NCBI RefSeq assembly: GCF_016717175.1
Contig: NZ_JADKFZ010000004.1
Strand: one strand, 5' to 3'
DNA length: 64,000 nt
Origin: Nannocystis sp.
GTDB lineage: Bacteria > Myxococcota_A > Polyangia > Nannocystales > Nannocystaceae
Shown here: positions 34,704 to 38,306 of the stretch, piece by piece
Position numbering within the stretch: the first letter of the stretch is position 1
Layout: every line of letters starts with the position of its first letter
The notes under the pieces: model-generated
The model's database searches: none
Told to the model about the DNA's origin: nothing
What the model saw: only the letters and a program-made list of their open reading frames with translations
Position numbers and translations under genes: made by a program

Positions 34704-37700
34704 ATGCACGAGAACCCCTACGTCGGCCCGCGCGCCTTCGCGGCCGGGGAGCGGCTGTTCGGACGCGACCGCGAGCTCGCCGACCTCGTCGACCTCGTGA
34801 TCGCCGAGCGCATCGTCCTGCTGCACGCCCCCTCCGGCGCCGGCAAGAGCTCCCTGCTGCACGCCGGCCTGATCCCGCGCCTGCGCGCCGAGGGCCTGGT
34901 GCCGCGGCCGGTCGCGCGGGTCGGGCTGCCGCCGCCGCTGACCTGCGCCGACCGCTTCACCCTCAGCGTGCTGCTCGGCCTCGAGGAGGATGTCCCAAAG
35001 GACAGGCAGACCCCGCTCGCCACGCTGGCCCAGCTGCGCCTGGTCGACTACCTCGATCGTCGACGCGAGGGCGACGAGCCCGAGGTCCTGATCCTCGATC
35101 AATTCGAGGAGCTGCTGACGATCGACCCCGGCGGGCGCGCGGCCAAGCTGGCCTTCATGCGCGAGCTCGGGGTCGCCCTGCGCCGCGCCGATCGCTACGC
35201 CGTGCTGGCGCTGCGCGAGGACTGGCTCGCCGCGCTCGACCCCTACCGCGGCGCCATCCCGACCCGCCTGCGCACCAGCTACCGCCTCGATCTGCTCGGC
35301 CCGGCCGCCGCCCTCGCCGCGATCCAGGGCCCGGCCGCGGCCCGCGGGGTGCGCTTCGCCGAGTCGGCCGCCAGCAAGCTGATCGACGACCTGCGCCAGA
35401 TCCGGGTCGAGACCCCCGACGGCGGCGTGCGCGTCGAGCCGGGCCCGAGCGTCGAGCCGGTGCAGCTGCAGGTCACCTGCCGCACGCTGTGGTCGCGGCT
35501 GTCCCCAGGGACAGCCGAGATCCTGCCCGCCGACCTCGCCGCGATCGGCGACGTCGACCACGCGCTCGCCGGCTTCTGCGACGACGTGCTCGTCGCTGTC
35601 GCCCGCGCCTGCGACACCCCCGAGCGCCTGCTGCGGGCCTGGCTCGCCCGCCACCTCGTCACCGATCGCGGCCTGCGGACCCAGGTGCTGCGCGGCGCCG
35701 GGACCAGCGAGGGCCTCGACAACCGGGCCCTCGCGGCGCTGGTCGACGCCCACCTGGTCCGCGCCGACGAGCGCCGCGGCATGACCTGGTACGAGCTGGC
35801 CCACGACCGCCTGGTCGCGCCGCTGCTCGCCAGCAACGCTCGCCACGCCGAGGCCCACCTCGGGCCGCTCGAGCGCCAGGCTGAACTTTGGGACAGGCAG
35901 GCCCGACCCGAGTCGCTGCTGCTCGCCGAGCCCGCGCTGCTCGACCGCGCCGCCGCCGAGCCAGGCCCGCGTACGCCCGCCGAGCTGGCCTTCCTCGCCG
36001 CCTGCCAGCAGCTGCGCCGTCGTCGTCAACGCGAGCGCCGCAGCGTCCGCTTCATCGCCGGGCTCGCCGTGCTCGCCTGCGCCGGCCTGGTGGCAGCCAG
36101 CGTCGCCGCGGTCCGGGCCCGCCACAGCGCCGCCCGGGCCGAGGACATGCGCGGCAAGGCCGAGCGCGAGCGCAGCGAGGCGGACAGCGCCCGGGCCCAG
36201 GCCGAGGCCGCGCGCCAGCTCGCCCTCTCGCGCCAGCTCGCGGCCCAGGCCCAGACCCTCCCGCTCGTCGACTACGAGCTCGCGGCCCTGCTCGCGGTCG
36301 AGGCCAGCGCCCGCGCCCCGGCGATCGAGGCGCGCGGCCCTCTGCTCGGCCTCGCCGCTCGCTGGCCGCGTCTTCGCGGTCTGCTCGACAGCGACAACGA
36401 GGGCGCCTACGGCCTCGCCGTCGACCCGCAGGACGGCGCCGCGTACGTCCACTTCGGCGCGCTCGGCCTGCGCAAGTACGGCCGTGGCCGCGTCGCCACG
36501 GCGCTGCAGCGCGACCCGGTCTCGGTCCTCGCATTCGCCGCTGCCGGGCCGCTGTTCGCCGCGCTCGGCAGCGAGTCCAACGTGGCCCTCCGCGCTCGCA
36601 AGGACGGCGCTGTTGTCCGCGAGCTCGGGCGACCCTTCGCGCCCGCCGACACCGGCGTCGCCGCGGCCCTCTCGCCCGACGGCGCCACCCTCGTCGTCGG
36701 CAGCGATCGCGGTGAGCTCATCGCCTTCAAGGTCGCCGACGGGCGCGAGCTGTGGCGGGTCCCCGGTCGCCCCGATCTCGGCGGCCTGGTCGTCACCGCC
36801 GACGCCGCCTTCGCCGTCGCCCGTACGGGCATCGTCCGCCACGACCTCGCCGACGGCCACGAGATCGCCGCCCTCGAGCTCCCGATCGCGAGAGTTGCGA
36901 GCTGGCCGGGGCGGGCCGTGTTCGCCGTCCTCCCGCCGTCCAGCGACCCCGCGGACGGCCTCCTCGGCCCGCCGCAGCTGGTCGACATGGACACCGCCAG
37001 CATCCACCGGCCCGTCGATCGCACGCCGGCCAACTACACCGCGATCGCCCTCCATCCCACTGGTTTCGACATCGCCGCCAGCGTCTGTGAGGGTGAGTGT
37101 CGCAGCATCGAGCTGCTGGTCTGGGACGGCCGCAGCGCCGAGCTGCGGCTGCGCAGCTCGCTCGGCGCCGTGCGCCCCGAGGCGATCGTCTACGAGGCCA
37201 GCGGCGAGACCGTCATCGTCGCCGCCTTCGACCGCCTGCTCCGCCACGACGTCCGCCCGCCCGCGACCGTCGACCCGGACACCGCCGCGGCCGTCTTCCT
37301 CGCCGACGATCGCCTGATCACGGCGCACGCCACGGGCCTCTCGCGCTGGACCCTCGATCCCCTGCGTCGCGTCGACACCATCCCGTGGGAGCTCAACGCC
37401 GCCGACCTCCGCGTCACCCGCGATGGGCGGCGCGCCGTGATCGTCACGGGCGAGGGCCGGGCCGTCGCGTACGACCTCGAGACCCGCGCCCGCCAGTTCG
37501 ACACGCCCGCGCCGATCGCTGTCACGCGCGCCGCGATCGGGGAGCTCGCCGACGGTCGCCTCGCCGTCGCCGGTCAGGACGATAGCAGCAACCAGATCGT
37601 CGCGTGGGACGCCAGCAGCGGCGCCGTCCTCGGCCGCCAGCGGCTCCCGGACGGCCCCTTCTCCGACGCCGGCATCTCGTGGCCCGAGTGGAGCAGCGAC

Positions 37701-38306
37701 GGCCACATCCTCACCAGCACCTGCCTGCGCAGCACCTTTACCTGCGTCGAGTGGCGGCTGTGGCGATGGGACCCGACCCATCCCGATCGGCCGCCCGAGC
37801 AGCCCCTCCCGGCCCTCGCTGGCCAGATCGACGACTTCGACACCAGCCCCGACGGCCGCGCCCTCGTCGTCAGCGCCGGCGGGACTCTGGTCCGCTGGAG
37901 CCTCCCGGAGCTCCGTCCGCTCGCCGTCCAGCGCAGCGACGCCGCCTGGGGCGGCAGCCTGGCCCACGGCAAGGACGGCAGCTTCATCGCCGCCGCGGGC
38001 CAGTGCGGCGACCGCCCCGACTGCCCCGGTTCCGGCCTGCAGCTGCTCGACGCCGTGACCCTGCAGCCGATCGGCGCCCCGCAGGTGATCCGCGACGGCC
38101 CCTTCTTCCGCGTCCTCGCGGCCGGCCGCGATCACGTGCTCACCCGCTCGGACCTCAGCGTCGAGCTGTGGGACCTCCGCCTCGCGCAGCTGCAGCGCAG
38201 CGCCTGTGAGCTCGCCGCCCGCGAGCTCGCGCCGGACGAGTGGCAGCGCCACCTCGGCGACCTGCCGTACCGGCCGATCTGCAGCGAGCTGGCCGCGGCC
38301 CCGTGA
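34704..38306 (+). CDS. STAND-type P-loop NTPase with transmembrane segment, coiled coil and C-terminal WD40/beta-propeller repeats
   Basis: Walker A LLHAPSGAGKSSLLHAG and Walker B ILILDQFEEL. A hydrophobic TM segment (FIAGLAVLACAGLVAASVAAV) and an R/A/E/Q coiled coil follow, then about 600 aa of propeller-like repeats (LAVDPQDGAAYVH..., ELWRVPG..., RWDP...). ATG at 34704. Confidence 0.8.
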   Translation: MHENPYVGPRAFAAGERLFGRDRELADLVDLVIAERIVLLHAPSGAGKSSLLHAGLIPRLRAEGLVPRPVARVGLPPPLTCADRFTLSVLLGLEEDVPKDRQTPLATLAQLRLVDYLDRRREGDEPEVLILDQFEELLTIDPGGRAAKLAFMRELGVALRRADRYAVLALREDWLAALDPYRGAIPTRLRTSYRLDLLGPAAALAAIQGPAAARGVRFAESAASKLIDDLRQIRVETPDGGVRVEPGPSVEPVQLQVTCRTLWSRLSPGTAEILPADLAAIGDVDHALAGFCDDVLVAVARACDTPERLLRAWLARHLVTDRGLRTQVLRGAGTSEGLDNRALAALVDAHLVRADERRGMTWYELAHDRLVAPLLASNARHAEAHLGPLERQAELWDRQARPESLLLAEPALLDRAAAEPGPRTPAELAFLAACQQLRRRRQRERRSVRFIAGLAVLACAGLVAASVAAVRARHSAARAEDMRGKAERERSEADSARAQAEAARQLALSRQLAAQAQTLPLVDYELAALLAVEASARAPAIEARGPLLGLAARWPRLRGLLDSDNEGAYGLAVDPQDGAAYVHFGALGLRKYGRGRVATALQRDPVSVLAFAAAGPLFAALGSESNVALRARKDGAVVRELGRPFAPADTGVAAALSPDGATLVVGSDRGELIAFKVADGRELWRVPGRPDLGGLVVTADAAFAVARTGIVRHDLADGHEIAALELPIARVASWPGRAVFAVLPPSSDPADGLLGPPQLVDMDTASIHRPVDRTPANYTAIALHPTGFDIAASVCEGECRSIELLVWDGRSAELRLRSSLGAVRPEAIVYEASGETVIVAAFDRLLRHDVRPPATVDPDTAAAVFLADDRLITAHATGLSRWTLDPLRRVDTIPWELNAADLRVTRDGRRAVIVTGEGRAVAYDLETRARQFDTPAPIAVTRAAIGELADGRLAVAGQDDSSNQIVAWDASSGAVLGRQRLPDGPFSDAGISWPEWSSDGHILTSTCLRSTFTCVEWRLWRWDPTHPDRPPEQPLPALAGQIDDFDTSPDGRALVVSAGGTLVRWSLPELRPLAVQRSDAAWGGSLAHGKDGSFIAAAGQCGDRPDCPGSGLQLLDAVTLQPIGAPQVIRDGPFFRVLAAGRDHVLTRSDLSVELWDLRLAQLQRSACELAARELAPDEWQRHLGDLPYRPICSELAAAP

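Follow-up and report, generated by a model that had tools for sequence, protein, structure and literature searches.

The window analysed here is a 64,000-nucleotide stretch of Nannocystis sp. DNA (contig NZ_JADKFZ010000004.1 of assembly GCF_016717175.1), with a G+C content of 68-76%, and the gene under study is IPO88_12545, which encodes a 1200-aa nSTAND1 NTPase with a transmembrane (TM) helix and a predicted double beta-propeller (Table 1). The relatives of this gene usually sit in the middle of an operon with genes for caspase-like and SIR2-type proteins, and IPO88_12545 stands without them. The longest plus-strand open reading frame (ORF) across the locus extends from 34593 to 38306. From 34704 the product agrees at every residue, end to end, with NCBI MBK9754313.1 from a Nannocystis sp. 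metagenome-assembled genome (MAG), where it lies on a contig of 915,480 bp; the ORF is a real gene. The ATG at 34704 was taken as the start codon because of this full-length identity, because the N-termini of homologues lie within a few residues of a shared NPYVGPR motif, and because of a promoter-like site just upstream, of which one was found against 0.1 expected in shuffled sequences. IPO88_12545 already carries the UniRef name nSTAND1 NTPase and, taken alone, is an annotated member of that family.

Table 1. Features of the IPO88_12545 locus and its surroundings, in window coordinates.
Feature	Position	Strand	Remarks
nSTAND1-TM-double-propeller protein, CDS	34704..38306	+	1200 aa; MBK9754313.1, IPO88_12545, Nannocystis sp. 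MAG
Promoter-like TCCACA-17 nt-TACAAT	34663..34691	+	ends 13 nt upstream of the start codon; consensus match only
nSTAND1 NOD module, residues 5-401	34716..35906	+	nucleotide-binding domain, helical domain, winged helix
Walker A PSGAGKSS, residues 43-50	34830..34853	+	P43, S44, G45, G47, K48, S50 invariant in 50 homologues
Walker B DQFEE, residues 132-136	35097..35111	+	D132, Q133, E135, E136 invariant in 50 homologues
His-Asp-Arg, residues 367-369, winged-helix region	35802..35810	+	H367, D368, R369 invariant in 50 homologues
Single TM helix, residues 450-470	36051..36113	+	FIAGLAVLACAGLVAASVAAV; preceded by RRRRQRERRSVR
Stalk, residues 471-553	36114..36362	+	R/A/E-rich long helix running on from the TM helix without a break, with two shorter ones after it
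Tandem double beta-propeller, residues 556-1160	36369..38183	+	13-14 blades (predicted); Cys pairs 795/799, 1007/1014, 1101/1107
C-terminal helical tail	38184..38303	+	Cys pair 1168/1193; family motif AC.LA.R.L...EW......C
Palindrome 1, TGTCC-CAAA-GGACA	34991..35004		codes D-V-P-K-D-R; outer C/G pair absent
Palindrome 2, CTGTCC-CCAG-GGACAG core at 35499-35514	35493..35520		13-nt arms; codes L-S-P-G-T-A
Tandem repeat, 36-39 bp, about 4 copies of ...CCCGTGATCGTGATCCGCGGTGGACCGCCC...	38295..38468		last STAND codons to OPT start
MVP-like gene	30708-33392	+	MVP_shoulder, Vault_3 repeat, SPFH/Band_7
Aldo-keto reductase (AKR) gene	33482-34594	-	between the MVP-like gene and the STAND gene
OPT-family oligopeptide transporter gene	38468..40129	+	Pfam OPT, E=6e-47
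NAD-binding oxidoreductase gene	downstream of OPT	-	
Response-regulator/PatA_N gene	after the NAD-binding oxidoreductase gene	+	
Radical-SAM gene	after the response-regulator/PatA_N gene	-	

The N-terminal part of the protein is a nucleotide-binding oligomerisation domain (NOD). Residues 5-401 match Pfam nSTAND1 (PF20703; E=1.3e-35, 124.3 bits against a cut-off of 27.1) over model positions 1-376 of 379, while at E<=0.01 there was no match to NACHT (PF05729) or NB-ARC (PF00931), just sub-threshold AAA_16 and AAA_22. An earlier note on this DNA, made without database searches, had read the gene as a STAND NTPase with a P-loop and had proposed profile searches for these three domains; the reading stands, with nSTAND1 as the clade. 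A search of NCBIfam gave nothing above its cut-offs, and one cluster mate at 90% identity is labelled 'NACHT and WD repeat' in one database source, a name to which Pfam gives no backing. Across 50 homologues from several phyla the columns of the Walker A and Walker B motifs are invariant, and so are those of the sensor-1 arginine (R171) and of a His-Asp-Arg triplet. NB-ARC proteins bear an 'MHD' motif, and this triplet appears to be placed in a similar way. The domain has the three-dimensional fold of STAND proteins, made up of nucleotide-binding domain, helical domain and winged helix. The protein almost certainly belongs to nSTAND1, its first 440 aa are strongly supported as a complete and cytoplasmic NOD switch with intact catalytic motifs, and this switch probably works by NTP-dependent oligomerisation.

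The NOD is followed by the single TM helix that the earlier note had already recognised, and by an R/A/E-rich segment, described there as a coiled coil, which is predicted as one long helix. In the AlphaFold2 (AF2) models, helices cover residues 425-468 (N-terminal model) and 471-518 (C-terminal model), strongly supporting a continuous helix of ~140 Å that joins the NOD through the membrane to the stalk. The C-terminal model (residues 470-1200) reached a predicted local distance difference test (pLDDT) score of 90.7 and a predicted template-modelling (pTM) score of 0.88, with 53 beta-strands followed by three short helices. The predicted propeller region comprises ~605 aa, with 13 four-stranded blades and a closing strand. 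In Foldseek all its top matches were tandem WD40 double propellers, including 2YMU (E=3e-26), Pwp2/Utp proteins and Apaf-1. No WD40 repeat (PF00400) was matched in the sequence, where a marginal PQQ_2 (33.4 bits) and a sub-threshold propeller model were the only signals. The ~600 aa of WD40 propeller previously suggested are thus borne out as a modelled double propeller and not as a sequence family: the WD40-type fold is apparent only in structure prediction, and the sequence repeats are degenerate. When each half of the protein was searched on its own against PDB sequences there was no match. A family profile had 2YMU as its top PDB match (E=7e-152), in a search swamped by WD40 matches because the alignment included full-length homologues. 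The tail motif was seen in most WD40-bearing homologues; a set of 26 full-length homologues shows it without variation as AC.LAGR.LT..EW......C, including C1168, R1173, W1180 and C1193.

The TM segment has a mean Kyte-Doolittle hydropathy of 2.36 over 19 residues and is the sole strongly hydrophobic stretch in the protein. A comparable single hydrophobic segment comes straight after the NOD in 120/120 top homologues, whatever follows it, and in essentially every full-length genomic relative (those with an ORF long enough to reach the position), so that the TM-anchored form, which had been called unusual next to MVP, is the family rule. A conserved TM helix ~410-465 residues past Walker A characterises the family, and residues 450-470 agree with it. 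In the 15 residues on either side of the helix, Lys and Arg average 6.3 on the N-side against 3.1 on the C-side, with the N-side higher in 115/120 proteins, which fits the positive-inside pattern of an N-in/C-out protein. The number of cysteines is even in the post-TM part of 96/120 proteins (~6.6 standard deviations off parity) against 67/120 for the pre-TM part, and the eight post-TM cysteines of IPO88_12545 form four local pairs (Table 1). Some relatives carry LysM+CBM9, Lcl_C or FGE-sulfatase after the TM helix, domain types usual outside the cytoplasm, and FHA was seen only N-terminal to the NOD. Because the ATP-dependent NOD must be cytoplasmic and the chain crosses the membrane once, the propeller is predicted to be periplasmic or surface-exposed. 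The topology is therefore very probably N-in/C-out, with a sensor outside the cytoplasmic membrane.

An exhaustive HMMER scan with residues 1-469 against cluster representatives at 50% identity found 3,316 clusters at E<=1e-30 and 8,508 at E<=1e-10, and among the top 150 almost every match begins at the protein N-terminus. At least 587 loci were confirmed in a scan with one genome per species; these are mostly from Chloroflexota, and also from Actinomycetota, Acidobacteriota, Verrucomicrobiota, Desulfobacterota and Myxococcota. In the retained loci, 78/80 NOD genes leave no space for an N-terminal domain, and a canonical WD40 match was obtained in 30/38 of the post-TM regions tested. Clustering of the ORFs that flank the NOD genes of these loci revealed an operon. 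A gene of ~685 aa encoding CHAT+SIR2_2 is directly upstream and on the same strand at 67/87 NOD genes, and in many cases its end and the STAND start share 4 bp. A Peptidase_C25-like gene (470-690 aa) is present in 30 loci, at most 150 bp past the STAND stop in ~16 of them, and genes of ~266 aa and ~112 aa without a Pfam match follow. No TM helix or signal peptide was found in the operon partner proteins. In PADLOC searches, the SIR2 part resembles the NADase domain of Thoeris ThsA (E=1e-7), SAVED_CHAT is the counterpart of the CHAT part (E=1e-8), and no system model covers the operon set. The architecture of IPO88_12545 is thus that of the middle gene of a widespread operon, which also encodes a cytoplasmic protein combining a CHAT caspase-like protease with a SIR2 NADase-like part and, often, a cytoplasmic C25-like peptidase of clan CD.

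Two loci of the family depart from this arrangement. At L083 (4398-10334), an ORF of ~1,980 aa from Acidobacteriota places the nSTAND1 Walker A ~1,255 residues from the preceding stop, and it may fuse the STAND gene with one or more upstream partner genes. At L088 (5849-6004), a 51-aa ORF overlaps by 4 bp the start of a partner-less nSTAND1 gene, at the place where a canonical CHAT-SIR2 gene ends, and may be the remnant of a lost partner gene.

In the 64-kb window, the CHAT-SIR2, the C25-like and the two small proteins have no homologue (tblastn E>0.03 throughout). The place upstream of the STAND gene that usually belongs to CHAT+SIR2_2 is held by the opposite-strand AKR gene. Neither an N-terminal effector-associated domain (EAD) or effector nor an effector at the same locus is present; the protein begins 4 residues before its hidden Markov model (HMM) match. 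Partner genes were likewise not found at loci L001, L003, L089, L004, L084, L085 and L086, and these partner-less members are here called orphans. Orthologues of ~69% identity share the order AKR-STAND-OPT or STAND-OPT, with both outer flanks varying among loci, and the OPT gene is downstream and on the same strand in 5/5 orthologous loci. As this linkage is conserved just among close orthologues, a functional link between STAND and OPT is kept as a lead, not as evidence. In L089 (8217-11053), an insertion directly behind OPT brings in genes for a HipA toxin-kinase and a GmrSD_N (DUF262-type) protein, forming a small islet of defence/toxin-antitoxin type that is absent from the window.

Farther full-length relatives, with a NOD ~60-70% identical to that of the window protein, are partner-less too, in differing housekeeping-like contexts. 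The group of L084 and L085 (~40% identical to the window protein over the full length) has the gene order GshB...MerR-TPR-STAND-PspA in common. The PspA/IM30 membrane-stress gene of this group is convergent and comes right after the orphan STAND gene (L084 11628-12437, L085 8446-9291). In a neighbour-joining tree of 87 NOD domains the orphans form one clade, with the CHAT-linked L087 and L015 as successive sisters, so that a single loss of linkage within Myxococcota is the simplest reading. The orphans are a monophyletic myxobacterial sub-clade nested in a CHAT-linked family, which has lost every linked partner and sits in stable, housekeeping-like synteny.

A canonical pair is also present in the same genome. 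With a myxobacterial CHAT-SIR2 protein as query, MBK9754403.1 (680 aa) was found on the 915,480-bp Nannocystis contig, and the accession that follows it, MBK9754404.1, belongs to the nSTAND1 paralogue IPO88_13015. On the short contig L090, which has an identical CHAT-SIR2, the next gene overlaps by 4 bp and its first residues match the paralogue at 59/59 positions. The adjacency of the pair was established in this way, from the CHAT-SIR2 protein, the short contig and the consecutive accession numbers. The canonical pair is approximately 91-94 genes from IPO88_12545 on the same contig, and its presence in the genome makes effector sharing in trans possible.

Kaur, Iyer, Burroughs and Aravind (eLife 2021; PMC8195603) defined the nSTAND1 clade as conflict-system NTPases that carry, as fusions, EADs or effectors at the N-terminus and FGE-sulfatase lectin domains at the C-terminus, and nSTAND1 targets diversified by diversity-generating retroelements (DGR) have been noted (PMC10907252). 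IPO88_12545 agrees with this clade in its full-length family HMM match over the NOD and in the UniRef name of the exact protein, and its relatives, mainly from Chloroflexota, Actinomycetota, Acidobacteriota, Verrucomicrobiota and Myxococcota, are tied to caspase-type and NAD-targeting effectors. It differs from the published forms in having neither an N-terminal domain nor a linked effector and in having a TM helix and a propeller. The searched literature gave no description of a TM/propeller nSTAND1 form with a CHAT-SIR2/C25 operon, and absence there is no proof that it is unpublished.

The Avs proteins (Avs1-5 and later families; PMC13581612) also combine a STAND NOD and a large repeat sensor with a cell-killing enzyme (SIR2 or protease), and the window protein is structurally similar to SeAvs3. 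It differs from them in that its relatives encode the effector as a separate gene, absent from the window locus, and in that a beta-propeller, with a predicted place outside the cytoplasm, serves as sensor instead of a TPR-like domain in the cytosol. The protein lacks any N-terminal extension that could hold a fused effector. PADLOC families gave no match to the protein at E<=0.01 and no system-level match for the neighbours, and neither the canonical relatives nor the paralogue matched an Avs model. The 'Avs-like' label of the earlier note therefore fails as a statement of membership, and the protein, although a STAND NTPase from a family of conflict systems, is not an Avs. Compared with Apaf-1 and bacterial Apaf-1-like proteins, it has no NB-ARC Pfam match and no CARD domain, and it has a membrane-spanning helix between NOD and propellers. 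The WD40 repeat protein of Nostoc punctiforme (2YMU) is the best structural match of the propeller region, with the differences that 2YMU was solved as a repeat region alone and that the degenerate repeats of the window protein find no PDB relative by sequence. Bacterial receptor Ser/Thr kinases such as PknD of M. tuberculosis (kinase-TM-extracellular beta-propeller) follow the same topological design, with a nucleotide-dependent signalling domain in the cytoplasm, a single TM helix and an outside propeller as sensor; their cytoplasmic module is a kinase, not an oligomerising STAND NTPase, and there is no homology between the two.

The reading favoured here, which is tentative and falls somewhat short of an even chance, is that IPO88_12545 encodes a single-pass inner-membrane nSTAND1 receptor, and that the orphan acts as an extra sensor feeding the CHAT-SIR2 protein encoded elsewhere on the contig. 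STAND proteins are held as ADP-locked monomers, in which a ligand induces nucleotide exchange and oligomerisation, and the oligomers activate effectors by proximity; the proposed mechanism is derived from this established behaviour. A ligand would bind the external propeller, and the signal would pass along the continuous stalk-TM-juxtamembrane helix, freeing the ADP-locked NOD. ATP binding would then drive oligomerisation of the NOD at the inner membrane face. In the canonical loci, the oligomer would activate CHAT-SIR2, with proteolysis and NAD+ depletion, and the C25-like peptidase. The least certain step is the output of the orphan, which could go through the CHAT-SIR2 encoded in trans beside the paralogue IPO88_13015, by direct recruitment and/or by NOD-NOD hetero-oligomerisation. 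Pairs of sensor and helper NLRs provide the analogy for such cooperation between orphan and paralogue, and output by this route is a possibility, held with rather low confidence.

Several points weigh against this reading. No defence genes were found around the STAND locus in the window, and no partner gene is conserved across the orphan clade, whose neighbours differ among sub-lineages. The orphan NOD and the paralogue NOD are only 56% identical, and any cross-talk between orphan and paralogous system is inference and nothing more. The topology call is founded on sequence rules, and the searched literature gave no experiment on any member of the clade. Propeller substitutions are equal in strands and loops (60% identity each), a pattern that diversifying selection and relaxed constraint fit equally. 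Sensor-like evolution counts in favour of the reading: the propeller evolves fast, with a ratio of non-synonymous to synonymous substitution rates (dN/dS) of 0.69-0.86 (dS ~0.33), where the AKR and OPT genes on its two sides gave 0.11-0.19 between the same genomes. The absolute values (NG86) are inflated because the G+C content at third codon positions (GC3) is 96%, the robust part being the contrast with the neighbour genes. Conservation in the remainder of the protein is also in its favour: dN/dS is 0.37-0.44 for the NOD (vs three orthologues) and 0.27-0.34 for the C-terminal tail. The orphan NOD keeps 112/134 of the columns conserved at >=85% in other members, with 7 clade-specific changes that are conservative, and none of the 8 lineages seen has an interrupted ORF. 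As judged from sequence conservation, the orphan NOD is not degenerating and the gene is still functional.

This conservation bears directly on the other explanations. After loss of its effector, the orphan could have been domesticated as a non-immune transmembrane signalling ATPase that reports an envelope, peptide or cell-contact cue to a cytoplasmic partner, possibly in connection with the adjacent OPT peptide transporter. The conserved NOD would suit such a role, and so would the absence of nearby defence genes, the shared gene order of L084 and L085 and the stable vertical synteny amid housekeeping-type genes, with STAND-OPT kept in five orthologous loci despite rearranged outer flanks. 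This alternative is nevertheless rather unlikely: a near-neutral propeller (dN/dS 0.69-0.86) is unusual for a fixed physiological ligand, no partner is conserved across the entire orphan clade, and STAND-OPT occurs only among the ~69%-identical orthologues, where it may be inherited gene order. A propeller dN/dS that nears 1, with strands and loops substituted equally, the erased WD40 sequence signature and the lost effector genes would also be expected of a conflict-system leftover whose sensor is drifting without current function. Such a decaying relic is improbable in view of a 3.6-kb ORF intact in at least 8 diverged lineages, the low dN/dS of NOD and tail, the retention of the invariant catalytic residues and of all four Cys pairs, and the pLDDT of the modelled propeller.

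The TM helix itself suggests another option, in which ligand-driven oligomers bundle their TM helices into a depolarising pore and no separate effector is needed. It is the sole element besides sensor and NOD common to all family members, it is rich in small residues here (AGLAVLACAGLVAASVAAV), and plant resistosomes, which form membrane channels, offer an analogy. Its sequence is weakly conserved among homologues, though, and most family members have enzymatic effectors encoded in the operon, by which the helix would rather be an anchor or signal conduit; a self-contained membrane effector is accordingly given little credence, less than a relic. Least credible of all is a cytosolic Avs-type sensor of phage proteins merely tethered to the membrane: PADLOC has no Avs match, there is no fused N-terminal effector and no room for one in 78/80 relatives, and a single TM pass after a cytoplasmic NTPase places the sensor on the far side of the membrane.

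A wider form of the receptor reading is unlikely as a whole, and is put forward as speculation. In it, the entire family, with its thousands of members, would be an 'outside-in' bacterial NLR that perceives a threat or a neighbour at the cell surface and, across the membrane, turns on cytoplasmic caspase-like and SIR2 death enzymes. The orphan would signal via its effector-linked paralogue, and through the conserved palindromes within the gene its expression would be coupled to a regulatory element found genome-wide. If this were true, orphan and paralogue would be a bacterial counterpart of plant sensor/helper NLR networks. To our knowledge, ligand sensing takes place in the cytoplasm in every prokaryotic STAND/NLR immune protein characterised so far (Avs, bNACHT and related). 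The predicted topology, if true, would define a class of bacterial receptors joining NLR-type oligomerisation with surface sensing, and the effector-less myxobacterial clade would be a natural experiment on such a receptor uncoupled from cell death. IPO88_12545 is an unusual, effector-less variant of a known and purely computationally defined family, and not a new kind of system. The main interest lies in the family-wide predicted extracytoplasmic sensor on an NLR-type switch, and secondarily in a conserved palindrome within the gene. The gene is of value as an entry point to these questions and not as a discovery by itself.

Two palindromes of the form CTGTCC..GGACAG had been reported inside the coding sequence, at 34991-35008 and near 35890. 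Both are real, with corrections: the first is exact only as the TGTCC core at 34991-35004, and the second lies at 35499-35514, the site near 35890 being a half-site only. Palindrome 2 has a minimum free energy (MFE) of -26.5 kcal/mol in a 42-nt context, with a predicted 9-bp stem. Outside of arrays, the window has 8 exact copies of TGTCC-N4-GGACA against 0.05 expected, exclusively with the 4-nt spacer; the window shows no enrichment of half-sites and no case of the reversed arrangement. Both palindromes are instances of this dispersed element.

Palindrome 1 is found at the same codons (GAT GTC CCN RAG GAC AGG) in 7 loci of the orphan clade, where neighbouring synonymous sites vary, and in the eighth locus, L003, it retains GAT and AGG with one stem mismatch. 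It needs two rare codons, GAT for Asp (17%) and AGG for Arg (1.1%). Palindrome 2 needs ACA, which is rare among Thr codons (1.9%), and its retention is confined to close orthologues (L001, L002, L003 and L089). Retention of palindromes built from rare codons points to selection, or to a self-correcting mutational process, at the nucleotide level. The element may be an operator for a dimeric DNA-binding protein or a short sequence-specific hairpin. A long-stem repetitive extragenic palindrome (REP) or terminator as a general rule is unsupported, as the flanks of 47 sites showed no excess of complementarity; stems of 8-9 bp are nonetheless present in palindrome 2 and in several copies at gene ends. 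Rfam gave no match in the whole window, and a scan for intrinsic terminators found none.

Further copies of the element are located 1-12 nt past stop codons in convergent gaps (40141-40154, 40191-40204 and 42111-42124). They have 8-9-bp stems and no U-tract, and resemble terminators or hairpins at 3' ends. Loci L001, L003 and L089 also have the copy that comes after the response-regulator gene, and two more copies are inside other coding sequences, at 46671 and 60065. A non-coding tandem array at 48077-48458, with flat codon-position GC, consists of 7.7 copies (92% matches) of the 37-bp unit GCAGCTGTCCGCGGGGACATGTCGCGTGTTTCCCGAG, with a palindrome in each unit. Similar palindrome arrays are present in L004 (6248-6410), L084 (674-746) and L086 (12508-12670), and a 28-bp tandem repeat at 13254-13365 (3.7 copies) has a GGTCC/TGTCC-CGAG-GGACA palindrome in each unit.

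On the upstream side of the STAND gene, the MVP-like gene has MVP_shoulder (E=2e-28), one Vault_3 repeat, SPFH/Band_7 and a long C-terminal coiled coil. The earlier note had placed the STAND gene next to it. The two genes are separated by the opposite-strand AKR gene and MVP is absent upstream of STAND in the orthologous loci L003 and L089, so a link between them was rejected. Upstream of the MVP-like gene, a gene on the minus strand (25508-28762) encodes a large protein kinase of the Ser/Thr type that ends in TPR_12/TPR_10 repeats.

Downstream, the tandem repeat that starts in the last STAND codons fills the 162-bp gap to OPT. The gap is only 51-69 bp in the orthologous loci, which indicates a recent local expansion of the repeat. 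Another tandem repeat, at 24605-24721, has 10.4 repeats (94% matches) of the 11-bp unit GAGCCACGATT.

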